DNA from: Eledone cirrhosa
Taxonomy: Eukaryota
Direction of reading: 5' to 3'
DNA length: 64,000 nucleotides
Assembly: GCA_964016885.1 (NCBI GenBank)
Contig: OZ024741.1
Location: forward strand, 343,480,001 to 343,544,000
The notes below the pieces were generated by a model. That model was given only the letters and a program-made list of their open reading frames with translations, was not told the DNA's origin and did no database searches. The position numbers and the translations under genes are program-made. Of this stretch, positions 2,606 to 51,549 are shown in pieces (positions within the stretch are counted from its first letter, which is position 1; every line of letters begins with the position of its first letter).

Positions 2606-4545
2606 CATCATCATCATCATCAACGTTTAACGTCCGTGTTCCACGCTTGCATGGGTTTGGACGGGGGTAGTCCCACTTGAGGCAAGAGTGATTGTCTTGC
2701 TCGCATAGGACTGTCTGGCAGGTTTTCTACAGTTGGATGCCCTTCCTAACACCAACCACATTTACAGTGTGGGTCTGGGAGGTTTTTACCGTGTTGCCTA
2801 CACGGCTACATTACAGCGTGGACTGTGTGTTTTTTTGTCGTGACACCTACACGATCTCATTTGTTTCGGCCTGGATGGTGTGGCACCAACACAACTTTAC
2901 ATAGAACTGGGTGGCGTGGATGGGTTGGGGTGGTGGGACGGGGGGGGGAGTATTTTGTTAGAGATGCCTACTGGCTGTAGTAGGTTTTACTATGTATTTA
3001 AGTAAGGCGGGTCTTCTCTGTTACTGAGTACCGCCAAAGGTCTCGGTCCAGTGACATTGTCTTGGAGAGGTGTAAGTGTGTGAGGTCGGAGTTTATCAGC
3101 TCGTCCCAGGTTTTGCTAGGTCTGCCTATTCCGTGGCTACCGTCTATCTTTACTGCCCTGCACTTTGTTATACAGCTATCGACTTTCATGCGCATCACGT
3201 GTCCATACCAACGTAGCCTTCTCTCGAGTAAACAACATCTGATCCCTCTTATTTCTAATTTTTTTTTTTCCTTAGTTCGTTTATGCTTTGCCGTTCACGT
3301 ATATTACTGTTACACATCCAGCGGAGCATGCAAGCTTCGTTCCTCTCTAGTCTGCGTATATCCTCTGCACACAATGCCCAGGTCTCACTGACATGCAACA
3401 TTGCTGTTCGTATGCAGGCATCGTACAACCTGCCTTTCATTTTTAGGGAGAACCCTTTAGCAGCTAATAGTGGTATAAGCTCTCTGAACTTTTTCCGACC
3501 AGTTCTGACTCTAGCTACAGTACTTTCAGAGCACCCTCCCCCACTGCTGATTTTATCACCCAGGTAACGGAAACTGTCCACTATTTCTATAGAACCCTCT
3601 GCGCAATTGAAAGAGCTAGTATTTTGTGGGCGCTTGCTGCTACTTATTGCACCAGAGCACCGGCCACATGTAAAATCTATGTTCTTAGTTAGCTTACCTG
3701 TGATCCCACTCCATCTTTTATGCACCCATACTTTGCATTTAGGACATAAAATGGAGTTTCTACCTACGCCTTTCCTACACACCGAGCACGACCATTTCCC
3801 AGAAGGGACCGCCGCCTTATTTTCTTTCCTACAAACTAGAACTTTAGTCTTAGCCAGGTTAATTTTAAGGCCTTTTGATTCTAGGCCGTGCTTCCATGTT
3901 TGGAATTTCTTCTCTAGCTCGGCCATTGATTCCGCTATGAGTGTCAGGTCGTCTGCGTATAGGAGTTCCCATGGGCAGCCGGTCTTGAACTCCTCTGTTA
4001 TAGCCTGAAGGGCAATAATAAATAGTAGGGGGCTGAGAACAGAGCCCTGATGGACGCCAACTTTTACGTTAAACTCTTCACTATATTCGTTGTTAATTCT
4101 AACCTTGCTGACTGTTTCTTTATACATGGCTTGTATAGCTCTCACAAGCCATTCGTCAACGCCTAGTTTTCTAAGAGCCCACCAGATAATGGAGCGGGGG
4201 ACTCTGTCGAAGGCTTTCTCCAAGTCGACAAAAGCTAAGTAGAGGGGTTAACCTTTAGCTAGGTACTTCTCCTGTAGTTGTCGTACAATGAAAAGAGCGT
4301 CTGTGGTACTTTTGCCTGACACAAACCCGAACTGCATTTCATCTAGGTCAATTCTCTCTCTGATTAGTTGTGCTATTACTTTTTCCGTGACCTTCATGAC
4401 CTAGTCGATTAATTTAATGCCTCTATAGTTACTCCTAACTAGGGCGTCTCCTTTACCCTTATAACAGTTAACGATGATGCTGCTATGCCAGTCCTTCGGA
4501 ACAACCCCATTCTGTACGACTTGGTTAACTATGCGGGTGACCATG
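2605..4545 (-). mobile_element. 5'-truncated RTE-clade LINE (RT C-terminal half, 3' UTR, (GAT)n tail)
   Basis: ORF 3255..4223 has EKAFDRVP, GVHQGSVLSPLLF and LLYADDL. Upstream frames give [18 protein letters not shown] 2998..3198 has GRPSKTW. The (CAT)n run at 2605-2622 is the tail. Confidence 0.92.
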
Positions 4546-4596
4546 ATACATATATTCTCTATATATATGAGTGTATGTGTATGTGCGGTGTGTTTG

Positions 4597-4675
<79 letters not shown>

Positions 4676-4683
4676 GTACATAC

Positions 4684-4784
<101 letters not shown>

Positions 4785-4918
4785 TGTGTGTGTATGTAGG
4801 TGTTTACAATATGATGTTTCAGATATCTTGGCAATAGCGCTTGATATGCAAGTTCTACATTTCTGGCTATATATTGCGTATGAATCATACATCCAATACA
4901 CGCATTTATAATAGATAT

Positions 4919-4966
<48 letters not shown>

Positions 4967-13727: not shown

Positions 13728-16700
13728 CACAGTCAACGTAATCAGTCGCATATTTTGGCGTGGGAGACTATTTATTAAATTTAAGATGAATACTATCTCC
13801 GACACAACTACAGCCACAACTACAGCCATGTTGAATAACTGGTTATTCTTCTAACTATATCTTCTGAAGACACCTTTTATTCGAATTCCTAGAGATATCC
13901 GACTAAATACATAATTCATTTTACAAGGATTTGCTACAAACATCATGGCTAAACACAACATCAACAACAAACTTAAGGAAGTATTGAAGACAAACAACAA
14001 GAAAAGTAAACAAACTATATTCAGTTGTAGCTACAGAAGAAACCGAAATTATGAATCGTATTTCTCTTGGAGTTGCGAACTTAATAATGATTTATTTAAT
14101 TGTTATAAAATGGCAAAAAATAATCCATCCATTGGCTATATGAACAGAATGAAGCTACATTGGGACGAAATGCACCCAGAGCTGAATTATTTCACAGCGA
14201 AACGATTACGCCAACAAGCGACGTTTGTTGAACGTAAAAATAAGATAAATATTATTAATTATAAGTCTCCCACAACAAACATGGGATCACAACACGTGCT
14301 ACAGGTCGCCATGGTACTAGACTTCCTAGCAGCCAGGTCGAACAACGCCTTGAAACAACTATGCCTGTAAGAAACTTGACACCACCTGTACCATCTAAGT
14401 CTACCTCGAATGCTGGGGAAAACACTATCGATGATAATATTAATCGAAGAAATAATAATAATAATCGAAGAAATGTGACACCACGTGTACCATCCGCGTT
14501 TACCTCGAATGTTGTTGAAAATACTATCGATAATGATATTAATCAAAAGTATAAACAATTGAAAATTTCCCTCAACGAAATCTTCCAGAGAGAAATTAAT
14601 TCACGTATAAATATCTCTCTTGCTGAACGTGTTAAAACGAAAATATTTAATAAAAAACCAAATAATGAAATATTACGTGTTATTGGCGAAATAGTGGGTG
14701 AATATTTACGACGGATAAAAACCCCAACATTTTGGCAAATCAACGCCTGTTTATATGCCTTAGCCACGACAGTAAAGCATTATCTTGGTGATAGCAGAGA
14801 TATTAACAAGAACAAAAAACCACCAAAAATACCATCACATATAACTAAAATAGAAAAAAAGATTGTTGACCTACGAAAAACCATAGGATATGTGACAATG
14901 CTCCTTACATGCAAACAAACAAACAAAAAAACTTCACTCCTCACCAACAAACAGTGAAAAATAAAATAGAGACGATGTTTGGTAACAGTAGAACCAGAAC
15001 TCTTCAATATAAGCTGATCACCCTCAAACAAGAATTGAGAGCTGTTAGCGAAAAACGCCGATACCTGAAGAAGGTAGATGAGAGAAAAGTGCTTAATAAG
15101 AGATTCAGACGAAACCAAACATCAGTCTATATAGATATGAAGAACAAAATAATAAGTGTCACTGAGTGCCCATCCCAGAAAGACATAGATTCCTTTTGAA
15201 GTAGAATATGGGGTGAAAAGAAGAATTTCAACCAAGATGCAGTGTGGCTTAAAGAAATCCGAAAGAACTATTGCTCCTATACTACAACAAAAACATACGA
15301 AATAAGTGAGGGTACCCTTGAGACTGTGATAGGAAAACTCCAAGATATAAGAAAACACCAGGAAGAGACTTGATTGTCGGCTACTGGTACAAAAAACTGA
15401 TATTCTATCGGAGGTATCTTACTGACCTCTACCAACAAGTTCTTAAGGGAGATACACTTATACCAGAATGGTTCACATTAGCACAAACATTACTGGTCCC
15501 CAAGAACAAAGACACCCACTTGGAAAAAAACTACCGACCCATTGCATGTCAGAACCTGATGTATAAGATGTATTCAGCCTGCCTGAACCTATTCTTCCAA
15601 GATCACTGTGAAAATAATAACATCATCACAGATGAAAAATCAGCTGGAAAGAAAGGGTTTGGGACTGTGCTGAACAACTCCTGGTCAACAAAACTGCGAT
15701 GTCGGAGGTGCGACAACTTAGAAGGAATATGGCTACAGTCTGACTGGACTACAGGAAAGCTTTCGATTCTGTTCCCCACACTTGGATGATCGAGGCCCTC
15801 CTACTTGCTAAAGTCCCAGACATTATTGTCAGAGCCATAGAGAAGCTGTCTTCCTCTTGGGCTACTATCCTCCGGTTAAAGACAGAGAGGGAGGACTCTA
15901 TTTTCACTGATAAAATAAAATATTGCAGGGGAATATTTCAGAGGGACAGTCTCTCTGTGATATTATTCATCTTGTCGTTAAACCCCTTGTCCTTTCTGCT
16001 CAAGAAATGTGAGGGATACATCATTGGCTCACAGGAGGACAGAAATACGTACCTAACCCATGATTTCTTTGTGGGCGATCTGAAACTCCATGCCAAGAAC
16101 ATGGATGGGATGAAGAAAAATCTTGACCTGGTTACAACGTTCTCAAAAGATATAGGAATGGAGTTTGGCCAAGATAAATGCTCATACATGACTGAAAAGC
16201 GGGGAAAAACAACAACCCAATCTAACAACATTGTCATCAATGGCCTAACTGTTTCACCGATATCTTATGAGGACTGCTACAGATACTTGGGGATAGATGA
16301 GAACATATCCTATAATGGTATCTGTAATAAAGAACGCGTAACCAGGGAATACAACACCCGATTAAGAAAGATCGGGTCATCGGAACTCACTGCGCAAAAC
16401 AAAACAGTGGCTCACAATGTGTTTGCTGTGCCTGTCCTAACACCAACGTTTGGAATACTCAATTGGACGATAGACGAAATTCGCGCAGTTGATATGGGAA
16501 CTCGAAAAATACTAAACAACACCGGAAACTTCCACATCAACAGTGACATAGACCGCCTTTACTTGATACGTAAGCAGGGAGGCAGTGGCCGAACCTCAGT
16601 CCAGACAAGATTTGAATGTCGCATCATATCTCTCCGACAACATCTACGAACCTCGAAGCGTAGGAGCCCGTTTCTCGAGCAAGTCTATCTGCATGAAACA

Positions 16701-17866
16701 GATAAGATCATGAGAGTTGGGAAGGACCTCTTCGAGAGATATTCCCTGCATGATAATAAAAAAATCACACCCAGGGAAGTCGCTCAGCAGTATCGCAGTG
16801 AATCCATGGATTAAAAACTGCATGGTTATCGGCAAAAAATCATGCATGGATATGTTGCCAAGAAGCTCCAGAGTGAGAGTAATATAGATAAGGAAAGTAG
16901 TCTATCTTGGACCAACAACCGCTATATTGGCTCCCACTTTCAAGGATACGCTTTTGCAATCCAAGAACAGGAGATTAACACGAAATACCTGATTCACAAA
17001 AGAGATAGGGATGCAGACAAAACACCTAGATGTGATAACAAGTGCAGACTCTGCAGAAATAATATCGAGATCACCCATGTCATCAGCAGCTGTCCAAAGA
17101 TGTCATCGCCGTACTATCTACCTATGAGGCATGATGTAGTGGCCAAAATACTGTACAATGCAGTCCGTAAAAAAGATAGCCCCGATAATAAACACATTAA
17201 AAGCTACAACAATGTGGAAGACATCCACATACATAGTATGAAAGAGTACTGGTGTAATGTTCCAGTAAAAACCCCAATAAAATGCAGGCTGAACAGACCA
17301 GATATGATGATATGGGACAGGGAGAAGAAAGCATGCAGAGTAGTGGAAATTAGCTGCCCAGCAGATGCCAATATAATATCAAAGATTAGCGAAAAGGAGA
17401 ATATTTACGCAGAACTGATGAGAAATCTGCAGATACTCCACCCTGATTACACCTTCAGATTTATGCCTGTGATAATTGATGGCACTGGGGTATGTTAGTA
17501 ACTGCCTCAATACAAATCTTGAGAAGCTAGGCTTCACAGGAACAGAAAGAACACCACTAGTTAGGAAATTACAAGTACAATCCATTAATGGAACAGTAAA
17601 AATATATAAAACATTCCAAAAATGTTGTATCTAATAACTGCATATACACATGTACAGATACAAAGCATATATACAGATTCATACATACAACTCAAAACAT
17701 ACACATCCACACGTACAATAACATCCATAATACACATGCATGCATACATACATTATCTACCTAGTTGATGTTGTGTAAATTCCAATGAGAGAGTCTTGTG
17801 TCTATGTTAGAAACCGACTCTCTCTCTATTGAGAAAAAAATTGTGAAATTATAAAACCAGAAGAAC
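13728..17866 (+). mobile_element. Near full-length R4/Dong-clade LINE (RT, CCHC knuckle, RLE), frameshifted
   Basis: NYRPIAC, GIFQRDSLS..LF, FVGDLKL, CRLC..ITHVISSC, RHD and RPDMMI..VVEISCP motifs. Flanked by (CATA)n on both sides. Confidence 0.92.
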
Positions 17867-20570: not shown

Positions 20571-20586
20571 TTATTTATATATATAT

Positions 20587-21795
20587 AGTATTTTGCAATA
20601 CACTTTATGCTTAATTAAAAGCATTTTGAAGACCGTATGCTATTGTTTTAGAGTAGTGACAAATTCACTTACTTTAATCTCAGCAAACAGGGGAGATAAG
20701 CCGACAAGGGCTTTGTTTCGCTTTTGTTGAAGCTTATCAAGGCTGACTACTCCTCCTGTCTACTGAGATTACTGATGTTATATTCTTATAGAATTCTTGT
20801 AAATAATCAGGAGCTGATTATACAGAGCGATTGTTGGTCAGGCAGAAATTAAAAATTAGAATTGGAGCTCTGAAATAGCAATATATATATGGATGTATAT
20901 ATAATGTATTTTGCAATACATTTTATGCTTAATTAAAAGCATTTTGAAGACCGTATGCTATTGTTTTAGAGTAGTGACAAATTCACTTACTTTAATCTCA
21001 GCAAACAGGGGAGATAAGCCGACAAGGGCCTTGTTTCGCTTTTGTTGAAGCTTATCAAGGCTAACTACCCCTCCTGTCTACTGAGATTACTGATGTTATA
21101 TTCTTATAGAATTCTAGTAAATAATCAGGAGCTGATTATACAGAGCGATTGTTGGTCAGGCAGAAATTGAAAATTAGAATTGGTGCTCTGAAATAGCAAT
21201 ATATATATGGATGTATATATAATCTATTTTGCAATACACTTTATGCTATAAGAATATAACATCAGTAATCTCAGTAGACAGGAGGGGTAGTTAGCCTTGA
21301 TAAGCTTCAACAAAAGCGAAACAGGGCCCTTGTCGGCTTATCTCCCCTGTTTGCTGAGATTAAAGTAAGTGAATTTGTCACTACTCTACAACAATAGCAT
21401 ACGGTCTTCAAAATGCTTTTAATTAAGCATAAAGTGTATTGCAAAATACATTATATATACATCCATATATATATTGCTATTTCAGAGCTCCAATTCTAAT
21501 TTTTAATTTCTGCCTGACCAACAATCGCTCTGTATAATCAGCTCCTGATTATTTACTAGAATTCTATAAGAATATAACATCAGTAATCTCAGTAGACAGG
21601 AGGGGTAGTTAGCCTTGATAAGCTTCAACAAAAGCGAAACAAGGCCCTTGTCGGCTTATCTCCCCTGTTTGCTGAGATTAAAGTAAGTGAATTTGTCACT
21701 ACTCTAAAACAATAGCATCTGGTCTTCAAAATGCTTTTAATTAAGCATAAAGTGTATTGCAAAATACATTATATATACATCCATATATATATTGC
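20587..21795. mobile_element. Head-to-head array of 318-bp HHR-bearing units (retrozyme-like), ~2 minus and ~1.7 plus
   Basis: Period 318 (ttttgcaata at 20591, 20909, 21227). Polarity switches at ~21246. HHR: AGCC-TTGATAA-GCTT(caacaa)AAGC-GAAA-CAAGGCCCTTG-TC-GGCT, with a one-base stem III variant at 21293-21338. Confidence 0.85.
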
Positions 21796-24700
21796 GGTTT
21801 CGCAGTTCTTCTGCTTTTCCAAAATAGAATTGAGATGGAGCGTTTTTGGTTTATCTCACATCTGGTTGGTCTTTGAATGTTACTTCTGTTTTATATAGAA
21901 AAAAGTGGCTCGAAATGCCAGGTTTTTAGAGAAGTAATTTGGCTGGTTGGTGAATAAGTATAGTAAATTTCGCGCCAGTGCGCATTACAAAGTTCTTATT
22001 GTATTTTCCTTCAAACAAGGGGAGGGGGGGGGGGGGGCTAACGTTGTTTTTTCATATATGAGTGAATTTGGTTGGTTGATGCAGTCACGGGAATAAACAC
22101 ATCAGTTTTCTCGCCAGTTTGTGTTTGAATTTCTTTTTACTTAAAAAAAAGGTGGCTCAAGAAGGCTTTTTTTTTATAATGTAATTTGATTGGTTATAAA
22201 TGAAATTATGACTGTCCCGTGAACAAGTACATTCAATTTCGCGCCCGTATTTGGGAATTTATTTTGTAGCCCTTTAGAGAATTTTGTGCCAACCAAAAGA
22301 TAATGGTCAAGAAAAATGGGATGGGGAGAATTGTTCTGGTTCAGTGAATATGGGTGGTGCGCTGGGGTGTCAAAATACACACTTTCTATTGAAGTGAAGA
22401 AAGCAGAGATATGTATGTTTATTTGTGTGCTTGTGTGTGTTTGTGTGTGTGTGTCTGTGTGTAGGAAGATGATTCTATTAGTAGAAATGGGGGAGGGAGT
22501 TGTGTGTGTGTGTTGGTGTTATGTGTGTGTGTATATGTGTGTGGGAGTATGGTTAGCATGTTAAGATGGAGAGAATATATATATGTTGTGTGTGTGTGTG
22601 TTTAGGAAAATGATTCTATTAGTAGAAATGGAAAGGGAGTTATGTGTGTTTTTTTTTGGGGGGGGGGGTAGCATGTTAAGGTGTTTGAGTATTAGCGTAT
22701 GTTAAGGTTTATTTAGTTCTGGTTTTTATTTTCTAAAGTAGAAGGTGTTATGTGTGTATGTATGTGTCTGTTTGGATAGTTAGAATGTTAGGGTGTTGAC
22801 ATAATGTATATTAAACTAAGTTTAATGCTGGTCTATATTTTCGAATAAACGTATTTTCCTTATTTATTCGTATTTGTAATGTTGTATTGTCAGCGCAAAG
22901 ATAAAATGGGAAGACTTGGAATTTGGGTGTCTTATTACTTGCGCATATGTCTAGATGCGCACTTAGTGGTATCTGTCTCGTGGTTGCATCTCGTAAGTGT
23001 TGGCGATGAACTGTCATTCTGTTTCTGAGTGTGAGTTTAGTTTGTCCTATATAATCTTCATTGCATCCTTTACATTTAATGGCATAAAGTTGATTTTTTG
23101 ATGAGCAAGTGAAGTGATTTTTTACAGCAAAATTTTGTCCTGGTTGAAATGTATACGTTTTGCCTTCAATGAGGTGAGTGCAAGTTCCACAATTAGAGCG
23201 ACCACATTTTTAGACAGTTGGTTGTGTGTTTGTGGTAGCTAATTTGGCATTGGTGAGTAATGTTTTTAGTGATTTCGGTTGTCTTTTGTTTTTGATTATT
23301 TTGTGTTTCAAGGGTTTTCTTTCATTCTTGGGTTTTGTTTCAATAGTGGGATGTTCTTGTGAATAGTGTTGTAAGCTTCCGCATTTCTTGGGTTGTGTGT
23401 TGAGATATATGATAGAATATTGGACGTAACTTGAATTTGTTTGTTTTCGTAATTCCTCAATGCCCTTTCTATTCCATTATTTATTAGTAATGGTGGGTAC
23501 TGTCTTTCGAGTAGAATTTCCTTTAATTCCTGAAGTCTTTTATTTCGCGTTTCATAATTGGAGACAATTGTGCAAATTCTTCTTGCTAGGTTAAAAGGGG
23601 TGTTCGTCTTCGTATGCTTTGGATGTTTGGAGGTGAATAGCAGGTAATGTTTGGAATCTGTTGGTTCTTAGTGTATGTCAGTTTCAATATTTGTGTCTTT
23701 TTTTAAGATTAAGATGTCCAGAAATAGGAGTTGATCTTGGCTGTATTCCTTTGTGAATTGGATGTGGTTATTGATGCCGTTAATTAAACTTTTGAAATCA
23801 TTTAGTTGGTCGAGTGTGTGAGACCAAAGAATGAGACAATCATCCAAGTAGCGTTTCCAATTCTCTGATAAATATTTGTGGAAGTTCAATCCGTATTTTG
23901 ATTTGGACGGTTCATATATCTGAACTTCTAAGTATGTCATGACTAAATTGGCATAAGTTGGAACGGCTTTTGTACCCATCGCAGTCCCCGATATTTGCTT
24001 GTATGTACTGCCATCGAAATCAAAAAAGTTGTTCTGTAAAATAAATTTTAAACCCTCGGTGATGAAGCTTTTTTCTATTCTGTCAGGTATCTCATTGGGA
24101 TATATCTCTAGCCAGAATCCTATTGCTTCTTGTCCGTATTGGTGTGGAGTCGTTGTGTAGAGATTCACTACATCGATATTACACAATAATAGTCTCGTTG
24201 TTGACATGTTTGGGGAGGTGGTTTAAGAGGTCCAGATCGTCTCTTACAAGGCTTGGTATGTGTTTGAGAATTGGTTTTAGTAGTATGTCTATAAAGTTGC
24301 TTAGTCTGTGTGTTTCACATTGTAGGCCCGCTACAATTGGTCTTAATTTAAGGTCTGTGGGGGTATTGTGTGTTCAGGCAGGTTAAGGTGGATTGTTTAC
24401 AGGCATTGTTAATTATTTCACACTTGTGGATCTTCGGAAGTCCATAAAGGTTGCTGGTTTTGTATTAAAAAGTGTTAAATAATCGTGTTCCTTTTTAGTT
24501 AACTCTTCCTCGTATCGACAAATGAATGTGTTTAATCTGGTCATCGTTTTTGATTGCTCGTAGTTTTTTACACTTTCATAGTAGTTAATATTTTGTAAGA
24601 GAGAGAACATAGAATTTTTATATTGTTCAGCATCCATAATGACGACAGTACTTCCCTTGTCGGCTTCCTTAATTATAATTTCCGTATTGTTTTTTAGTTC

Positions 24701-27245
24701 ATGGATAATCTCCCATTCCCTTCGACTCGTGTTGGGTTTGGGTTTCGGTTGCGGGAGGTCATGGTATGGGAAAGTTGCTATATGGTCACAAAATTTGTCC
24801 AGAACTCTGTTTCTACCTTTTGTTGGGTTGTAGCTGCTTTTATTCCGTGCAATTGATTGGTCGTTATTCTCCATGTCAAAAAAGTCCTCTGTGAGACGTA
24901 ATTTTCTGCAGAAATGTTAAATATCGTCATTTATCTCATTGAGGGTAGATATTGTAGTGTTACTATGAATTTCAGTCCTTTGGAGAGAATTTTGATTTGT
25001 TGGGCTGAGAAGTTTGTATTCGAAAGGTTGATTATTTTCGGTTTTTCAAAATCGGTTTGTGCCACCGGGTGCCGTGGGTCCTGTAACCTTGGTCTAAAAA
25101 ATGATTTTTCTGAATAGTTTTTTCATGGGTATTATTATATCTAATGGCATTTCCCCTGTTGTTGTGTGATCTTGTATAGAAGTTTCGGACGTATTGAGGT
25201 TCGGTTTGTTGATGGTTCGAGTTGTAGATTTTGTTCCTTTGTGTGGGTTGGAATCTACGATTTTGGAACAGGTTCTGTGTGGGTTGGGATCTACGATTTT
25301 GGAACAGGTTCTGTGTGGATTGGGGGTCTACGGTTTTGGAATAGGTTTTGTGTTGGTTGTGATCTGCCGATCGGGTCCTGTCTTGTGTTGGGGGACATTC
25401 GGTTTTTGTTGGGGGACATTCGGTTATAGTTTTGTCTATGGGTTCTGGGATTATCGTCATAGTTTTGCTGGGGGTATGTTGGACATTTTGTTACTTTTTT
25501 TTGTTATTTGTTGTGCGTGTAGTGTGTGAGTGTTAGTTTGTTTTAAAAATGGGTTACCTGTATGTTGTTCATTTTTGAAATCCATTTAGTAGTTGTTGAA
25601 CCAGGTGGCATTTTTCCCCCATCGCTGTAGGGATGTTAGTTCTTCATACTCACAATCTTCCTTCCAAAGTTTTAAGGTTTTTTTCATAGAGTAGGCCTTC
25701 AGAATGCCTTGAGATTTCTGTTTCCATCTGTTGTTTGAGTGACTTGAATTTTTCTTCGTTGGAGTTGGCTCTTAACCGCAACAGTTCTATTTCTATTTTA
25801 AACTTTTCTAACGCCATCTTTTCCCTAAGTTTTTGTTAGTTTTCTGGTTCATTCGGGATGGGTTTTATTTGGAGTTTTTTTGGGAGGATGATTGGGGTAT
25901 ATGTCTGCCTTGCAATTATTTTTTAGGAGATTCCAAAAGGCGAATTTGCGGGCTGTGAGCTTTTGAGTCCATATATTGATTAGGGTGTTTTACACCGAGT
26001 GGACATCTCGTAGATTGGGTTCTAATGGTTGTTCCAGCTTTGGGAGCATTGCTGTTTCAATGGTTTCGATAAGTTTAGTTAATGTTGGAGTAATATTCGT
26101 CTCTTGGGTATTTCCTGCTTCTTCATTGGGTCCTTTTTTTATAGATATGTATTTGGTCCACTTTGTTGGTCAAAATTAAAAGTTTAGAGTAAAATTCTTT
26201 GAGTTCATTTAAGATGTCATGGTTCAGTGAGTTGTCGTTTTGTTGAGACTGTGGTGGCATTTTCGGTCTTCGTGTGGTGGGTATGTATTAGAAAGTGAGG
26301 TTTTTTTTACAAAATGAAAAATAACCGAGGTGTCCTACACAAGTGAAAGTATAAGGAAAAAAGATGAAATCGAAAATGCAACTGGAGTCATTTTTTTAAA
26401 AATATATATTTATTTAGTTCTTTTACCGGTTTCGCAGTTCTTCTGCTTTTCAAAAGTAGAATTGAGATGGAGGGTTTGTGGCTTTTCTCACATCTGGTTG
26501 GTCTTTGAATGTTACTTCTGTTTTATATGGAAAAAAGTGGCTCGAAATGCCAGGTTTTTAGAGAAGTAATTTGGTTGGTTGGTGAATAAGTATAATAAAT
26601 TTCGCGCCAGTTCGCGTTACAAAGTTTTTATTGTATTTGCCTTCAAACAAAGAGGAGGGGGGGGGGGGGGGGGCGCAGGTTGTTTTTTCATATATGAGTG
26701 AAGTTTGGTTGCTTGATGCAGTCACGTGAATAAGCACATCAGCTTCCAGTGTGTGTCTGAATTTCTTTTTACTTAAAAAAGGTGGCTCAAGAAGGCTTTT
26801 TTAAAATAAATGTAATTTGATTGGTTATAAATGAAATATTGACTGTCCCGTGAGCAAGTACATTAAATTTCGCGTCCGTATTTTGTAATTTTTTTATAGC
26901 TATTTAGAGAATTTTGTGGCAAACAAAATATAATGGTCAAGAAAAAGGGATGGAGAGAGTTGTTCTGAGTATGACTGAAGTGCTGAAATGTAATTTGATT
27001 GGTTATAAATGAAATTATGACTGTCACGTGAACAAGTACATTAAATTTCGCGCCCGTATTTGGGAATTTATTTTGTAGCCTTTTAGAGAATTTGTGCCAA
27101 ACAAAAGATAATGGTCAAGAAAATGGGACGGGGAGAATTTTTCTGGATCAGTGAATATGGCTGGTGCGCTGGGGTGTCAGAATTCAGACTTTTTATTGAA
27201 GTAAAGAAAGTAGAGATATGTATGTTTGTGTGGTTGTGTGTGTAT
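21796..27245 (-). mobile_element. Neptune-type Penelope-like element with direct pLTRs and a disrupted ORF
   Basis: RT motifs IIKEADKGS, YKQISGTAMGT..APTYANL-like and WKRYLDD. Cys linker KCGRSNCGTC. GIY-YIG region CKGCNEDYIGQT..RMTVHRQH. Direct repeats at 21796-22450 and 26428-27240. Confidence 0.9.
26418..26460 (-). ncRNA. Minimal HHR in the Neptune pLTR, U3-A8 core variant
   Basis: Minus strand: TTGAAAA-GCAG(aagaa)CTGC-GAAA-CCGG-TA. Stem I is short and imperfect. Confidence 0.7.
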
Positions 27246-31592: not shown

Positions 31593-31640
<48 letters not shown>

Positions 31641-31646
<6 letters not shown>

Positions 31647-34600
31647 ATAAATGCTCTGAAATAGCGATATATATGTGAATATAGACATAGAATATTCGAA
31701 AATATTCTGTATGTTTATAATAAACATTTTGAAGACCTAATCGCTATAGAATAATACGTCACGTATTACAATTAGATTCTCGACAAAAGCAAGGGAAGTA
31801 ATCTACGCGTTTCATTCTTGTTAGAAATCATCAGGACTACATATCCAGTGCTTTTATCGAGAATGACACAGCTAGAGACTTATAGAATACTTAGCTGTGT
31901 ACAGGAACTGGTTTGAAAGAGCGGTTGCCGGTCCGGCAGAAATTAGAAATTGGAATAAATGCTCTGAAATAGCGATATATATGTGAATATAGACATAGAA
32001 TATTCGAAAATATTCTGTATGTTTATAATAAACATTTTGAAGACCTAATCGCTATAGAATAATACGTCACGTATTACAATTAGATTCTCGACAAAAGCAA
32101 GGGAAGTAATCTACGCGTTTCATTCTTGTTAGAAATCATCAGGACTACATATCCAGTGCTTTTATCGAGAATGACACAGCTAGAGACTTATAGAATACTT
32201 AGCTGTGTACAGGAACTGGTTTGAAAGAGCGGTTGCCGGTCCGGCAGAAATTAGAAATTGGAATAAATGCTCTGAAATAGCGATATATATGTGAATATAG
32301 ACATAGAATATTCGAAAATATTCTGTATGTTTATAATAAACATTTTGAAGACCTAATCGCTATAGAATAATACGTCACGTATTACAATTAGATTCTCGAC
32401 AAAAGCAAGGGAAGTAATCTACGCGTTTCATTCTTGTTAGAAATCATCAGGACTACATATCCAGTGCTTTTATCGAGAATGACACAGCTAGAGACTTATA
32501 GAATACTTAGCTGTGTACAGGAACTGGTTTGAAAGAGCGGTTGCCGGTCCGGCAGAAATTAGAAATTGGAATAAATGCTCTGAAATAGCGATATATATGT
32601 GAATATAGACATAGAATATTCGAAAATATTCTGTATGTTTATAATAAACGTTTTGAAGACCTAATCGCTATAGAATAATACGTCACGTATTACAATTAGA
32701 TTCTCGACAAAAGCAAGGGAAGTAATCTACGCGTTTCATTCTTGTTAGAAATCATCAGGACTACATATCCAGTGCTTTTATCGAGAATGACACAGCTAGA
32801 GACTTATAGAATACTTAGCTGTGTACAGGAACTGGTTTGAAAGAGCGGTTGCCGGTCCGGCAGAAATTAGAAATTGGAATAAATGCTCTGAAATAGCGAT
32901 ATATATGTGAATATAGACATAGAATATTCGAAAATATTCTGTATGTTTATAATAAACATTTTGAAGACCTAATCGCTATAGAATAATACGTCACGTATTA
33001 CAATTAGATTCTCGACAAAAGCAAGGGAAGTAATCTACGCGTTTCATTCTTGTTAGAAATCATCAGGACTACATATCCAGTGCTTTTATCGAGAATGACA
33101 CAGCTAGAGACTTATAGAATACTTAGCTGTGTACAGGAACTGGTTTGAAAGAGCGGTTGCCGGTCCGGCAGAAATTAGAATTTTCGAATATTCTATGTCT
33201 ATATTCACATATATATCGCTATTTCAGAGCATTTATTCCAATTTCTAATTTCTGCCGGACCGGCAACCGCTCTTTCAAACCAGTTCCTGTACACAGCTAA
33301 GTATTCTATAAGTCTCTAGCTGTGTCATTCTCGATAAAAGCACTGGATATGTAGTCCTGATGATTTCTAACAAGAATGAAACGCGTAGATTACTTCCCTT
33401 GCTTTTGTCGAGAATCTAATTGTAATACGTGACGTATTATTCTATAGCGATTAGGTCTTCAAAATGTTTATTATAAACATACAGAATATTTTCGAATATT
33501 CTATGTCTATATTCACATATATATCGCTATTTCAGAGCATTTATTCCAATTTCTAATTTCTGCCGGACCGGCAACCGCTCTTTCAAACCAGTTCCTGTAC
33601 ACAGCTAAGTATTCTATAAGTCTCTAGCTGTGTCATTCTCGATAAAAGCACTGGATATGTAGTCCTGATGATTTCTAACAAGAATGAAACGCGTAGATTA
33701 CTTCCCTTGCTTTTGTCGAGAATCTAATTGTAATACGTGACGTATTATTCTATAGCGATTAGGTCTTCAAAATGTTTATTATAAACATACAGAATATTTT
33801 CGAATATTCTATGTCTATATTCACATATATATCGCTATTTCAGAGCATTTATTCCAATTTCTAATTTCTGCCGGACCGGCAACCGCTCTTTCAAACCAGT
33901 TCCTGTACACAGCTAAGTATTCTATAAGTCTCTAGCTGTGTCATTCTCGATAAAAGCACTGGATATGTAGTCCTGATGATTTCTAACAAGAATGAAACGC
34001 GTAGATTACTTCCCTTGCTTTTGTCGAGAATCTAATTGTAATACGTGACGTATTATTCTATAGCGATTAGGTCTTCAAAATGTTTATTATAAACATACAG
34101 AATATTTTCGAATATTCTATGTCTATATTCACATATATATCGCTATTTCAGAGCATTTATTCCAATTTCTAATTTCTGCCGGACCGGCAACCGCTCTTTC
34201 AAACCAGTTCCTGTACACAGCTAAGTATTCTATAAGTCTCTAGCTGTGTCATTCTCGATAAAAGCACTGGATATGTAGTCCTGATGATTTCTAACAAGAA
34301 TGAAACGCGTAGATTACTTCCCTTGCTTTTGTCGAGAATCTAATTGTAATACGTGACGTATTATTCTATAGCGATTAGGTCTTCAAAATGTTTATTATAA
34401 ACATACAGAATATTTTCGAATATTCTATGTCTATATTCACATATATATCGCTATTTCAGAGCATTTATTCCAATTTCTAATTTCTGCCGGACCGGCAACC
34501 GCTCTTTCAAACCAGTTCCTGTACACAGCTAAGTATTCTATAAGTCTCTAGCTGTGTCATTCTCGATAAAAGCACTGGATATGTAGTCCTGATGATTTCT

Positions 34601-35977
34601 AACAAGAATGAAACGCGTAGATTACTTCCCTTGCTTTTGTCGAGAATCTAATTGTAATACGTGACGTATTATTCTATAGCGATTAGGTCTTCAAAATGTT
34701 TATTATAAACATACAGAATATTTTCGAATATTCTATGTCTATATTCACATATATATCGCTATTTCAGAGCATTTATTCCAATTTCTAATTTCTGCCGGAC
34801 CGGCAACCGCTCTTTCAAACCAGTTCCTGTACACAGCTAAGTATTCTATAAGTCTCTAGCTGTGTCATTCTCGATAAAAGCACTGGATATGTAGTCCTGA
34901 TGATTTCTAACAAGAATGAAACGCGTAGATTACTTCCCTTGCTTTTGTCGAGAATCTAATTGTAATACGTGACGTATTATTCTATAGCGATTAGGTCTTC
35001 AAAATGTTTATTATAAACATACAGAATATTTTCGAATATTCTATGTCTATATTCACATATATATCGCTATTTCAGAGCATTTATTCCAATTTCTAATTTC
35101 TGCCGGACCGGCAACCGCTCTTTCAAACCAGTTCCTGTACACAGCTAAGTATTCTATAAGTCTCTAGCTGTGTCATTCTCGATAAAAGCACTGGATATGT
35201 AGTCCTGATGATTTCTAACAAGAATGAAACGCGTAGATTACTTCCCTTGCTTTTGTCGAGAATCTAATTGTAATACGTGACGTATTATTCTATAGCGATT
35301 AGGTCTTCAAAATGTTTATTATAAACATACAGAATATTTTCGAATATTCTATGTCTATATTCACATATATATCGCTATTTCAGAGCATTTATTCCAATTT
35401 CTAATTTCTGCCGGACCGGCAACCGCTCTTTCAAACCAGTTCCTGTACACAGCTAAGTATTCTATAAGTCTCTAGCTGTGTCATTCTCGATAAAAGCACT
35501 GGATATGTAGTCCTGATGATTTCTAACAAGAATGAAACGCGTAGATTACTTCCCTTGCTTTTGTCGAGAATCTAATTGTAATACGTGACGTATTATTCTA
35601 TAGCGATTAGGTCTTCAAAATGTTTATTATAAACATACAGAATATTTTCGAATATTCTATGTCTATATTCACATATATATCGCTATTTCAGAGCATTTAT
35701 TCCAATTTCTAATTTCTGCCGGACCGGCAACCGCTCTTTCAAACCAGTTCCTGTACACAGCTAAGTATTCTATAAGTCTCTAGCTGTGTCATTCTCGATA
35801 AAAGCACTGGATATGTAGTCCTGATGATTTCTAACAAGAATGAAACGCGTAGATTACTTCCCTTGCTTTTGTCGAGAATCTAATTGTAATACGTGACGTA
35901 TTATTCTATAGCGATTAGGTCTTCAAAATGTTTATTATAAACATACAGAATATTTTCGAATATTCTATGTCTATATT

Positions 35978-35988
<11 letters not shown>
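31641..35988. mobile_element. Head-to-head tandem array of 308-bp HHR-bearing units (non-LTR retrozyme-like), 5 minus and 9.1 plus
   Basis: Period 308 (31642, 31950, 32258...; 33181, 33489...35953). Polarity switches at 33180/33181. Each unit has GTAGTC-CTGATGA-tTTC(taacaa)GAAt-GAAA-CGCG-TA-GATTAC (e.g. 33351-33393). Flanked by (TA)n. Confidence 0.92.
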
Positions 35989-36059
<71 letters not shown>

Positions 36060-36482
36060 ATATTATACTCTTGATTTGGCCTGAGATGAATATTTCCAGA
36101 TACCTTTTAAGTGTAACTTTCCGTATTTATTATTACTATGAAATATTGATTGTTGATATGGTATTATATATCTCTGTTTTTAGCCTAAGAAAATACCTAT
36201 ATGCGTGTATAAATAATACATGCATATATTTATTTTTTAAAAATCTAATTGAGTTCTCCACACGCAAGGTTAAAATTATTGAAAAAATTAATTGACCCGC
36301 ATGCATATTATTTTATTATGTTTCGCGATGACCTCCCCTTTCCGCTTGATGACAGTGTGAAATTTCTCATTCTGAGACTGCTAGAATTTCAAATTTGGCG
36401 GTCATTCAGATACGGAGAGGGAACATCGTAAGACATGGAATATCGGTAAGAAAGTTTTTTTTATATCGATGTTTGACGGGCA

Positions 36483-38566: not shown

Positions 38567-41500
38567 AAAAAGTATGACCCCGACGGCAGAGCTCAAGCCG
38601 TTTCGACGGCTATTATATATATAAACATATAAATACATATATATATATATACATACACATATACACACCCACACACTAATATACACTCACACATATATAC
38701 AATAAAGTTACGTCACCACCTTAATAAAAATACACACACACATATAAACACACACACACGCATATATATATATATATATACGGGGTAACATACATACATA
38801 TACATACAGATATATACATACAGATATATATAATTATATACACATATATACATATGTATATATACATATATACACATACACACAACAAATACATACACAC
38901 AGAAATACATATCTATAAATAAAAAAGGTGGGTAGTAAAGGGTAAAGTAGAAAGTAGGGGGGAATAAGGACAATAAATAACATAGGAAAAAGTTTAAATA
39001 TAAGTGGAGATAAGGGAGAAAAAGAATATAAGAGTACAGAAAGTGAGTTCAGAGAGTAATAAAAATTGTAGTGGATGGAAGGCGTAGAGAGCAGAGAAGT
39101 TTAAGGTGGTTGAGTCATCGTAGGAATGTCAATCCAGTTACAGAGCAGATGTGATTTCAGGTGAGGACAACATCTGAAGATCTCGGTCTTGGTGTTCAGG
39201 CAAGTTGAAGTGGCTTTCAAGTTTTGTAGAATTCTAAATGTTTCAGTGGTACACAAAGAACAATTCTCTGTGGCTCTTTGGTATTCCCTCGAATGGTCTA
39301 AAATAGACCAATCGATAGTGTACGGGATGTTTTTATCTTTGAATTCCCACACCTTATTTGCGAGAGCCGTTGATGTTCTTTTATCAGAGTGTTTAAAAGA
39401 AGCGAGATGTGCATAGAACCTGGTTTTGAACCTGTCCTGAGTCATGCCAACATATCGTTCACTCCTGGCTGGCTGGCTGGTTGTTAATCAAAGGTGTCAC
39501 TTTGGCCTCATATACAACGGATTTGGTATTACAGTTGCCCTGTAATGGGCATTCATCCGGCTTCCTGCAACTGCATCCTGGATTTATTCTCGTACGATTA
39601 GAATAGGTGATTTTAGACTCATTGATGGGCAGCAAGAGTAACTGATTTTAACTACATTTATATTAAATATCTTATAATATCTATGATTAGGGGGAAAATG
39701 TTTGTCTAAGATGTCAAGGAATTTCCTTCCTACATTAGTTTTGACAGTTAGAGAGAAGGGGGGGGGGGTGTAAACCAAATAATTTTCCTTTTCCTATTAT
39801 TGTGATTAGTTTTAGGGGGAGGAGTAGGTGAATATTTAATGTGTTCTGTAAAGCCGCTGTTATTAAGGGCTTTGTTATAAATGTCTAGAGACGATGATAA
39901 GGTAGAAATCCTACGGCTAATATTGGGAATAAGATTTTTAAAAGCTATAGGGGCATGGCAAGACTCTGTGTATAAAATGTTCGTTAGGTTTATGATAAGG
40001 TTTAAAAGAGGCACTAAGTAGATCAAGATTAATGTCAAGAAAGTTAGCATTGGTAAGGTTCGTATCTATAGTAATTTTAAGGTTTAGATTAGCAACAGTA
40101 TTGATTAAATCTTTACGGAATTTATCAAGGTTATGGCCGTTGGTGGTATGAGAAACTGCCAATCCGTCGTCACGGTATAAACCGATATTATGGGAAGGAA
40201 ATTTCTTTTTAAGGGCGTGGAGAAGGAATAATCCTACTAAGTCACACACATCCGCACTGTCATATGAACCCATTGCAACATCAAAAGAGTTTTCAGGGTT
40301 TGACTTTTTAACCCAAATACTTTCATTAGTAAAGAGTAGAGTTTTCCTAGCATGAAAGATAATGTCTTCTTCTAATTTAGAAATAATAATGAAGGGTCTT
40401 GGAAAATCTAAGGCTTTAGTTAATAAGGAAACAGTAATAGAGGGGTAAAAATCAACAATATCAAATTGGGTAAATCTACACTTATTTTTACCTTGTATAT
40501 TATTAAACCAAGAAATAACAGAGGATGTATTTAACCATTGTGATAAGTCAGTCTTAGTTCTAATTTGGAGAATTAGTTTTCTTAAGATTTTTTTTACTTG
40601 CAAGGCCAACTTCGGATTTAGCCGGGTTAATCAGTCTACAGCTAGTTCGATTAGTAAAGTCTAATTTATGGTCTTCAAGGGTAATATATGCTTTACGTTT
40701 AGCTAGGCTTTCAATCCGGTTGTCTATTTTTAAAGAACTAGCTAGTTCTTTAGCTTCTTTATTAATAGTATTGTAGGTGTTATTGTGAGTTAATTGATAT
40801 TTGTTGGTGATACTATTAGTTAAAAGTTGGTTGTACTAAATACTATTAACTTCAAAGAGATTTTTAGTTTTATCGGAAAGAACAAAAGTGTTTGTAGAAT
40901 TTTTAAAATTAGAAATTTCGTTAGAAAGTTTAGTTTGAAAATTATTATTGTACTTACGAAATTTGATATCACTAATTAAATTAACAAGGTCTAATTCGAA
41001 GTTGGCCATGTCTTTAATTCTAGGTGGGTATTTACGGGATTTTATGTCAAAAGAATCATTTGTATCAGCACTGAATAGTCCATCGTAAACCATTGCCCTC
41101 CATCTCATTCTTTTAACGACTTGTTCGATTGTATCTATAAGCAGTTTGGTATAAATTGTGTTGGAAGGAGTAGGTATATTCTTGATTGATAATCTAATTC
41201 ATAAATGTCCATGGTGTATGTTGGTTAAATTCCAGAAAACTGTAGAGTGCTCAACTAATCGGGCTGGAAAGTGTCAATCATATATGTAATATAGAATATG
41301 CTTCAATCAATCCAAGTTGGAGCTGTATAAATGAAGTAATTCCGTCGGAAAGGTCCAGGAAAAAAGAGAGCTCTATGTAGGTTACAGAGCTTATTAGTTA
41401 TGTAATGATCAACATAAGATAATTATTTCATTTACCAGTGTTTTCTTGAAAGCAAACAAAATTTGCTTTCAGTCATCAGAATGAAAAAATGGTGGTGTAT

Positions 41501-43396: not shown

Positions 43397-44190
43397 CGAA
43401 ACATTAGTCAATTGCATGAACTCATAATCCCTTATTTACTGCTATATATATTTCGATGATAGCCATAGAATGGCTATGACCTCATCAGGCAGTTAGTCAG
43501 TTCTTAGATATGCCAGCTCTGTGTGTATAGTGTTGATGGTATCAGAGCCTTGGGACATAAATGTTTAATATTTTAATATATTAATATTTCTAAATTGTAA
43601 TATCTATAATATTTGTAGTACTTTCACCTTTCAGCAAAACTTTCTTTTAATATATATATATATGTATTAAGAGAAATTTTTGCTGAATTTTACTACAAAT
43701 ATTAGAGATATTAACATTTAGAAATATTAATATATTAAAATAATAAACATTTTAATTGTTAAAGAAGATAGGATCATTTTGAAGATTTATAGGAATATTA
43801 TAAATTACACTTATTTCTGAATGTAGAGTTTTGGCGATGTGTGCAAGAAGAAAATAATTCTGAAGAAAATAATTCTTTTGACAGTTAATTATATAAACAT
43901 TTCTTCGATACACAATTTACAGAATTTTGATAAAGCCATATTTCGGTACGCAGGTGCTTTCGTAATCGTTTTTAAAGATATTGAATAGTCTATATTCTTG
44001 CTTTTTAAGTTCCATATAAGATGTGAAAGAGAAGTAGAAGATTTTTTATCAGATCTGCTGAAAGAATGATTATGGTTATTCCAGCGATGTTTAAATTCTG
44101 TAGAAGTGGCACCGACATAGTTAAATATATAATCTCTAGTTTTAACTGTGCATTTATAGACTACTGTATATTGCACATTGAACACACGCC
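43393..44190 (-). mobile_element. Naiad-type GIY-YIG 3' fragment with an HHR-bearing pLTR
   Basis: ORF 43889..44185 reads VVYKC..YVGATSTEFKHRWNNH..CKLCIEE. HHR at 43438-43493(-): ACTGC-CTGATGA-G..ATAGCCAT/ATGGCTAT..C-GAAA-TATATA-TA-GCAGT. Confidence 0.85.
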
Positions 44191-44296
44191 TTTACGCTTT
44201 GGCTTCTAACTAATTCACCAATCTCTCCTCTCCTATCTCCTCTCCTACCTCCTCTCCTATCTCCATCTCTCTCTTTAAGATTGGTTACTCTTGAAC

Positions 44297-50937: not shown

Positions 50938-51240
50938 AATATATATCTATTTCCGAGCACCAATCCTAATGTTTTATTTTTACTGGACTGGCAATTGCTC
51001 TGTATAATCAGTTCCTGATTATTACTGGAATTCTATAAGAATCTAGCCTCTATAATTTTCGGCAGAGGTCGGAGAGTACGTTCCTCTGAGGATCACCAAC
51101 AATGGGAAACAGAATCTGTCAGCTTCTCTCCCTTCCTTTGTCGAAAAAAGAAGTGACATAGTCAGTACTTTAAAATAAAGCGCAAAGCCTTCAAAGTGTT
51201 TTTAATTAGACATAAGGTATATTACCAAATATACTATACA
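50938..51240 (+). mobile_element. Diverged monomer of the 308/318-bp retrozyme-like family
   Basis: gctctgtataatcagttcctgattatt..ttctataagaat block, and CTGAGGA..GAAA-CAGAATCTG-TC. Confidence 0.8.
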
Positions 51241-51549
51241 TACATTCATATATATATATATATATAAACAAAATATACAAACAAAATGGCGTAGGACAGA
51301 ACAAAGGAGAGGCACAGAAACAAAGAAAGGAATCCCCAGTCACTTAAGTGGTCACAGAGTGTGTGACGAAAGAACTATGACAATATACAAACAACTATCT
51401 TGTTGTGGAACCAACCAACCAACCAGAAATTTATAAATTTATAAATTTATTATAATAAATTGAAGTGAAAGCAACTGGTGCGTGTGTTTCTTATTGGCAA
51501 TATGACCCTCCCAAAGTATAACAATATAAATATACATATATATACATAT

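Follow-up and report, generated by a model that had tools for sequence, protein, structure and literature searches.

Inverted arrays of a young animal retrozyme family and their probable insertion by PLE-type priming at two sites of one RNA

The 308-bp tandem array found in the window (by which the whole analysed stretch of 64,000 nucleotides is meant) is recognised, from its units and its ends, as one insertion of a young, protein-free family of animal non-LTR retrozymes, of which more than 1,000 insertion ends are present in the same genome. The original prediction, made from the letters of the window, had proposed a candidate new retrozyme/circRNA system and had treated the array as a single special locus; instead, the class is a known one, and arms in head-to-head orientation are the norm of the family, with 31 of the 39 short-site ends on C1:1-97.5 Mb lying in such pairs. 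The proposals that the array is a retrozyme, that it is very recent and that it arose by reverse transcription with a rolling-circle-like signature are supported, and mobilisation of the Penelope-like-element (PLE) type is supported by the tail at one end, the inverted 5'-truncated copy and the AT-rich target. The two fixed end sites and the common haplotype of the arms, on which the mechanism rests, had gone unnoticed in the original prediction. The value of the family lies in the countable evidence that it offers for two-ended PLE-type priming on one RNA, probably a circular one. In the reading which we consider quite likely, both ends of a broken TA repeat serve a PLE enzyme as primers, and a single RNA, probably circular, is copied from two fixed positions that lie 26 bases from each other.

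The array and its predicted hammerhead

The array at 31641-35988 is real and consists of 5.0 minus and 9.12 plus units, as established with Tandem Repeats Finder (period 308 in both parts, with 5.0 copies at 31641-33180 and 9.1 copies at 33180-35988) and by exact comparison, in which all units are identical bar one base, 32650 (Table 1). The 5 minus and 9 plus near-identical 308-bp units, the single difference at that base and the lack of an ORF had all been predicted, and all of them stand, the longest open stretch in the array being of 59 codons, a length which no stop-free stretch exceeds in any frame. The GC content of the unit is 34%, and unit positions are counted from the first base 3' of the predicted hammerhead cut. 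Since the array has pure TA on both sides, a target duplication is unreadable at this locus; the left and right flanks are unrelated. The fact that the left arm measures exactly 5.0 units was considered as potentially meaningful and is taken as chance, the 5' ends being uniform across 88 arms. The earlier remark on transcription agrees with the geometry, in which read-through would meet antisense units before sense units; such an RNA could fold back over 1.54 kb.

Table 1. Features of the array in the window
Feature	Position	Strand	Description
Left arm	31641..33180	-	1540 bp, 5.0 units; sense 3' end (31641) at unit position 163, the long 'tail' site
Right arm	33180..35988	+	2809 bp, 9.12 units; start at unit position 101; sense 3' end (35988) at unit position 137, the short site
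Inversion junction	33180..33180	.	Meeting point of the two 5'-truncated arm ends; 1-base overlap
26-nt tail	31641..31666	-	Unit positions 138-163; at the left end, missing from the right end; PLE-type asymmetry (compare PMC11167929, PMC3846280)
Type I hammerhead, first of 9 plus copies	33351..33393	+	Every 308 bp; predicted cut between 33387 and 33388
Type I hammerhead, one of 5 minus copies	33030..33072	-	Every 308 bp down to about 31798
Predicted hairpin	33483..33502	+	Unit positions 96-115, about 20 nt upstream of the short site
Single differing base among 14 units	32650	.	Exact comparison
(TA)n target tract, left flank	31613..31640	.	
(TA)n target tract, right flank	35989..36067	.	

A descriptor scan found one type I hammerhead per unit in all 14 units (9 plus, 5 minus), composed of a helix I of 6 bp (GUAGUC/GAUUAC), an intact core (CUGAUGA, GAAA), a helix II of 4 bp (UUCU/AGAA) over a U-U mismatch, and a helix III of 2 bp (AC-GC-GU) forming the palindrome ACGCGU, with the cut predicted between GUA and GAUUAC and repeating every 308 bp. 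The earlier description of a minimal hammerhead with ACGCGU holds as regards the motif, which is intact in every unit, but not as regards the word 'minimal', since a short palindromic helix III is, in the available text of PMC4209133, the usual form of the metazoan type I hammerhead and distinct from the 'min-HHR'. The same source describes such hammerheads as acting as dimers in tandem repeats; the self-duplex of ACGCGU is calculated at -7.5 kcal/mol. Folded as a circle, the monomer has a predicted minimum free energy of -70.5 kcal/mol, against -47.6 +/- 4.6 in 100 shuffles (z = -4.9), and the fold of the circle with hammerhead helices I and II open is 1.5 kcal/mol costlier. The energy of the 66-nt hammerhead alone was insignificant (z -1.6), and an Rfam scan of the window gave no match at gathering scores.

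Insertion ends, templates and junctions across the family

All data come from a single genome assembly of 3.0 Gb, in which the unit is dispersed, with at least 389 matches, from 38 of 164 candidates scored. Exact end patterns occur genome-wide as 1,186 short-site ends and 750 tail ends, the latter count being given for the forward strand, since reverse counts are inflated by overlapping matches. Two sets of loci were studied: 19 picked by identity to the unit (the array in the window and 18 others among the matches listed) and 40 further ones taken from the end lists on C1.

The sense 3' ends of the arms are fixed. In the 19 loci picked by identity, all 32 arm ends lie at about position 137 or at 161-170 of the unit, with AT-rich or (TA)n sequence adjoining, which defines two end sites 26 nt apart; the 13 inverted loci of this set are without exception head-to-head and pair an end of one kind with an end of the other. 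Moreover, on C1:1-97.5 Mb, the region where both end-pattern lists are complete, the 31 pairs of outward-facing ends within 20 kb are all mixed and none is homotypic (chance about 5e-10), and loci picked by one end only, with the other end in view, gave 9 further mixed pairs out of 9. At L112 the tail arm measures 11 nt. Target duplications, which in animal non-LTR retrozymes are longer than 4 bp where they occur, can be read in few loci: informative direct repeats at the insertion flanks were found in 7 of 42 loci, as against 11 of 249 (4%) mismatched controls, three of them being 42-63 bp long; most flanks are pure TA. In the available text of PMC3846280 and PMC8557442, PLE insertions are described as having an inverted 5'-truncated copy and a 30-40-bp tail at a single end, and for the PAc element this tail is bounded by two internal start sites of the reverse transcriptase (RT), both strands being cut and extended by a protein that prefers ATT and is predicted to be a dimer (PMC11167929, as far as its available text goes). 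The lopsided two-site ends of the arrays are thus read here as the PLE signature, and integration of the retrozyme arrays by a PLE-type process is very probable.

Both arms of an insertion carry the same haplotype. Among 44 inverted loci with 23 haplotypes, none has arms discordant for a multi-unit variant, the probability of a haplotype match between two random loci being 0.055. Haplotypes have up to 7 fixed changes relative to the window unit, and the differences within arrays amount to at most 79 in 144,161 bp, an upper bound which includes sequencing errors and junction edges. These counts leave out L111 (assembly gap), L114 (270 bp between the arms), L129 (four segments) and single-arm loci; L113, L117 and L128, with one end outside the fetched stretch, are excluded from the counts of ends and lengths. 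The lack of discordance in 44 loci with 23 haplotypes, together with the homogeneous arrays, indicates that both arms share one template and that lineages pass a one-unit bottleneck; we hold the single template with high confidence. In addition, the 5' ends of the arms are uniform round the unit (Rayleigh p 0.98, n=88), a single one of the 88 falls no more than 5 nt from the cut site, and copying continues through 464 cut positions, from which it follows that the template was not a cleaved linear RNA. At L033, the short-site arm has one variant in its units 1 and 3, and the tail arm has it in its units 2 and 4, a pattern best read as coming from a mixed multimeric template rather than from a monomer circle. 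Variants repeat at a spacing of 4-21 units in L035, L037 and L139, and the junction of L129 is duplicated; the variants at 4-7-unit spacing and the repeated junction indicate that some local duplication occurs. On balance, a circle is likely to have been the usual template.

Arm lengths range from 0.3 to 27 units and are near exponential (CV 0.86, KS p 0.12). The lengths of the two arms show a weak correlation (rho 0.25, p 0.11), and the longer arm can be of either kind (23/41 loci). Inversion junctions show microhomology of at least 2 bases in 18 of the 30 cases free of insertions, against 18% in simulation, and short extra sequence in 13 of 43, about 3 of these 13 being probably point changes near the junction. 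No clustering of junction offsets was found in 41 loci (p 0.27), in which a hint of fold-back, given by near-zero offsets in the first 13 loci, disappeared. The joining of two separately primed cDNAs end to end is a better fit than fold-back, which we state with considerable confidence.

The hammerhead appears to be under selection, as judged from the kinds of change it carries. All 7 array-wide substitutions within it are of a tolerated kind (a variable core position, loop II, or a pair kept or added), whereas 7 of 8 single-unit substitutions harm the core or stems and only 1 of 8 is tolerated (Fisher p 0.0014); an array-wide insertion in helix I of L135 was left unscored. When transitions at sites predicted to be paired are counted along the entire unit, pairing survives in 9 of 10 array-wide cases and in 2 of 12 single-unit cases (p 0.002), a test which rests on one predicted structure and in which the single-unit differences include sequencing errors. 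Six array-wide changes break predicted pairs of the rod.

In an older sister family, which shares about 67% identity with the unit, the two homologous end sites and a 26-nt tail recur, although the sequence that it has internally at the short site often departs from pure TA, which indicates that the end site is set by position and not by homology alone. The hammerheads of the sisters are retained with different stems, one of them having the U3-A8 core previously described in PMC4209133. A hairpin at unit positions 96-115 is kept with different sequence in two sister families and may be a candidate enzyme-binding signal; inspection of the alignment by eye gave no sign of a doubled hairpin at the two end sites. 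An 8-mer upstream of the short sites, common to the unit and to the PLE at 22811-25490 of the window, was rejected since it is missing in the 318-bp sister family.

An ORF-bearing PLE family of the same genome, encoding a 775-aa RT plus GIY-YIG, has end sites 62 nt apart, and inverted copies with one end of each kind and a 62-nt tail were seen. The sampled PLEs, which we take to be Neptune-, Hydra- and Poseidon-like, are placed by motifs and not by a tree. None of the PLE families sampled (L049-L108, L149-L178, L111 and those in the window, the genome having further families) has a pLTR homologous to the unit; the candidates for a partner, all lacking homology to the unit, are the ORF-bearing family (22811-25490 in the window), that of 39101-41198 and one that is C-rich (L111, L121). 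A search with a distant PLE endonuclease gave no homologous pLTR and mostly returned what is apparently the 22811-25490 family again, and none of the 58 young-family and 30 older-family loci has a PLE ORF continuous with the array.

Words of the unit were also met outside this genome: each of 20 runs, with 17 organism labels, contains at least half of those sampled. Horizontal transfer was considered and rejected, and the cross-organism signal is not counted as transfer, since it looks like trace DNA from a host rich in this repeat, which would explain it. X3 and X13, when assembled, gave one contig each that runs round the unit (340 bases at depth 48.5 and 280 bases at depth 5.1) and has the common 310-bp haplotype, and no flank was present among the listed loose ends of these contigs (6 of 33).

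Proposed mechanism and its rivals

According to the mechanism proposed, tandem units would be transcribed and cut by the predicted hammerhead, which would probably act as a dimer held by its palindromic helix III; the cut RNA would then be ligated into a circle of 308-310 nt. A PLE protein with RT and GIY-YIG domains would nick both strands of a (TA)n tract, one DNA end priming at about position 137 and the other at about 163; each RT would then roll round the template for a random distance, from 0.3 to 27 turns, and the two cDNA 3' ends would be joined by microhomology or short insertions, producing an inverted array with a tail on a single side. The points against this reading include the variant patterns of L033, L035, L037 and L139, the lack of a homologous pLTR among the PLE families sampled, and results from other systems: the available text of PMC11167929 reports that uncleaved RNA of PAc is inserted in vitro, the hammerhead being dispensable, and that of Li et al. 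2026 (10.64898/2026.07.22.740005) reports cleavage in vitro for 1 of 9 Xenopus retrozyme dimers. Somewhat better than even, in our estimation, is the wider proposal that this is the general PLE mechanism, a dimeric enzyme using both tail-bounding sites on a single RNA, applied here to a ribozyme-made circle copied by rolling circle for up to 27 turns.

The closest rival keeps the same two-ended PLE priming and places it on long uncleaved linear multimers, with circles as a minor form. It would suit the variants of L033, offset by one unit between the arms, as well as the finding that PAc takes unprocessed RNA in vitro with no reads ending at the cut site (PMC11167929, available text), and arms with a common haplotype and read-through of cut sites are equally allowed. 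Nevertheless, arrays differ from one another by fixed changes and are nearly free of differences inside; repeated linear copying would accumulate unit-specific errors, so that a one-unit bottleneck would be needed at least occasionally. The array-wide variants also spare the hammerhead, and the linear multimer is considered unlikely. More doubtful still is a model put forward for PLEs, as far as the available texts go, by Arkhipova et al. 2013 (PMC3846280) and Craig et al. 2021 (PMC8557442), in which priming occurs once and is followed by fold-back, with either the cDNA or an antisense template used for self-priming, and resolution by the endonuclease sets the second end. Such a process accounts for the common haplotype and the head-to-head polarity, and a few junctions do lie on local palindromes or hairpin stems (L033, L048, L109). 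However, junction offsets span the whole unit with both signs, single-unit variants are by eye mostly unmirrored between the arms, the tail arm of L033 needs more template than the cDNA of the other arm provides, and the second end would have to hit the other fixed site every time.

Local amplification of short solo pLTR-like insertions, by DNA circles or by unequal crossover of the satellite type discussed by Li et al. 2026, would explain the variants recurring every 4-7 units and the repeated junction of L129, but the same variants are homogeneous in both arms across the inversion, arm lengths decay smoothly from under one unit to 27, and polarity and ends are fixed in RNA-sense terms, which makes it very improbable as the origin of the arrays. 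An artefact of assembly or library, either a fold-back chimera or a collapsed repeat, was suggested by the near-perfect 1.54-kb inverted repeat and by the fact that no listed read contig bridges the junction in the window. It is hardly credible in view of the unrelated flanks, of the fixed 26-nt asymmetry in 44 loci on many contigs, and of the microhomology and insertions at junctions; in run X1, possibly the sample from which the assembly was made, the contigs show loose ends at the same positions of the unit (33216, 33244, 33247). Copy numbers within arrays could still be off in the assembly. Two-ended priming on one RNA, usually a circle, is therefore the reading preferred.

Comparison with known systems

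Mobilisation of animal retrozymes by PLEs through circular RNA has been a hypothesis since 2020, based on co-occurrence and terminal similarity, and the origin of the inverted-plus-tail form of PLEs is debated between self-priming, endonuclease resolution and two start sites. Since more than 1,000 near-identical recent insertion ends with haplotype barcodes are at hand, the alternatives give different and countable predictions; furthermore, the family specifies an RNA unit of 308-310 nt and two start positions for the existing in vitro PLE assay. If the preferred reading is true, nature would provide an example of rolling-circle reverse transcription that is site-primed and leads into a genome. 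Under the wider proposal, PLEs would be directly shown moving retrozyme circles, and the head-to-head arms and one-sided tail of PLE insertions would be explained in one step; the hammerhead would be selected because only RNAs that have passed through a circle found new lineages.

The features common to this family and the animal non-LTR retrozymes, as the available texts present these (PMC7229834; 10.64898/2026.07.22.740005), are tandem units of 150-450 bp with one type I hammerhead each and a GC content below 45%, the lack of ORF, LTR, PBS and PPT, dispersed loci, a rod-like predicted circle, and the presence of PLEs in the genome. The axolotl HHR_Amex2 resembles the unit in the U-U mismatch of helix II and the two-pair helix III. 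In those retrozymes circles and cleavage have been demonstrated, whereas in the present family both are predicted. Both mobilisation by PLEs and tandem cDNA from circles have been proposed for retrozymes (PMC7229834; Li et al. 2026, available texts), the former being argued from co-occurrence and pLTR similarity; here it is read from the insertion ends. The word 'inverted' has 0 occurrences in the main text of PMC7229834, and no description of inverted arms, fixed ends, tail or haplotype sharing in retrozymes was found in the literature searched, which consisted of listings and abstracts, supplements being a place where insertion structures could be shown.

The plant LTR retrozyme, with a type III hammerhead in its LTRs, PBS, PPT and a 4-bp duplication, is a different element, since the array has type I hammerheads and head-to-tail multimers with no internal region; nor does the array have the RT and GIY-YIG ORF of an autonomous PLE. 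In LINE-1 twin priming, two target ends prime on one RNA and give an inversion joined by microhomology; the poly(A) end is where one primer starts, and the start of the second is internal and variable. In the arrays, by contrast, both starts are fixed and internal, and each cDNA can span many units.

The endonuclease-positive PLEs are the closest in their ends, sharing, in the available texts of PMC3846280, PMC8557442 and PMC11167929, a head-to-head inverted 5'-truncated copy, a tail at one end, two internal starts, AT-rich or (TA)n targets, microhomology junctions and a hammerhead in the terminal repeat. The array differs from them in having no RT/endonuclease ORF, a tail of 26 nt instead of 30-40, and an insert made wholly of unit multimers; its short site shares TA homology with the target, whereas the start site of PAc is non-homologous (PMC11167929). 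Chlamys MRC1 is likewise a non-autonomous PLE-type element with multicopy head-to-tail insertions, although elements of this kind resemble the 3' ends of autonomous partners and their clade is described, in the available text, as having no canonical hammerheads (PMC8557442). Judged by its ends, the array would thus work like a non-autonomous PLE.

Sister families and target tracts

The 308-bp hammerhead unit of the young retrozyme arrays has relatives within the window (see the table). In the 318-bp sister family the hammerhead has a long helix III and a core of the U3-A8 type, and the 3' end of a Penelope-like element (PLE) adjoins the right end of the array. In the older sister families, sampled at 30 loci (L179-L208), the fixed 3' end sites are those of the retrozyme unit.

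TA tracts following PLE 3' ends are occupied by young retrozyme arrays at loci L115 and L137. Interrupted TA tracts are also repeated in the flanks of L032, L036 and L132 and in the right flanks of L083 and L086, the repeats being either both-sided (42-63 bp) or periodic on one side, which suggests either that long stretches of target were duplicated or that TA was synthesised reiteratively during priming, in the manner of telomerase.

Table. Repeats and hammerhead motifs in the window and at related loci
Feature	Position	Remarks
Type I hammerhead motifs, unrelated	7173, 20278, 29537, 43201, 43488, 55822, 56105/56245	56105 (-) and 56245 (+) form an inverted pair
Non-LTR retrotransposon-like reading frames, broken	2998-4957, 14265-17498	ORF list judged by eye
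318-bp sister family, inverted array	20576-21801	~66% identity to the 308-bp unit
Older sister families	50947-51256, 60537-60812	copies ~317 bp
Two-ORF PLE, broken copy	22811-25490	(-)
Other PLE families, fragments	39101-41198, 43889-44191	both (-)
C-rich PLE family	L111:1186-3975, L121:5058-5900	

Possible multimeric templates, and unit sequence in other runs

A variant recurs in alternate units of both arms at L033:2436-5701, repeats of two variants are spaced 7 units apart at L035:2707-8585, and an inversion junction is present in duplicate at L129:518-5251; these patterns are signs of multimeric templates or of later local duplication.

Retrozyme sequence is also present in sequencing runs under 17 organism labels. 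In two runs labelled as other organisms (X3, X13), compared with window 33140-33487, one contig per run circles the unit and carries the common 310-bp haplotype. Trace DNA accounts for such occurrences most simply; a free circle or transfer could instead lie behind them.

PLE families

The two-ORF PLE encodes ORFs of ~410 aa and 775 aa (RT/GIY-YIG), its intact relatives (L079-L088) being many and near-identical. A U3-A8 hammerhead is predicted in the terminal repeat (pLTR) of this family, whose two end sites are separated by 62 nt, and which we take to be Neptune-like. The fragments of the other families are presumably Hydra-like, that at 39101-41198 belonging to a family with many open 714-aa copies genome-wide, and the C-rich family is assumed to be Poseidon-like.
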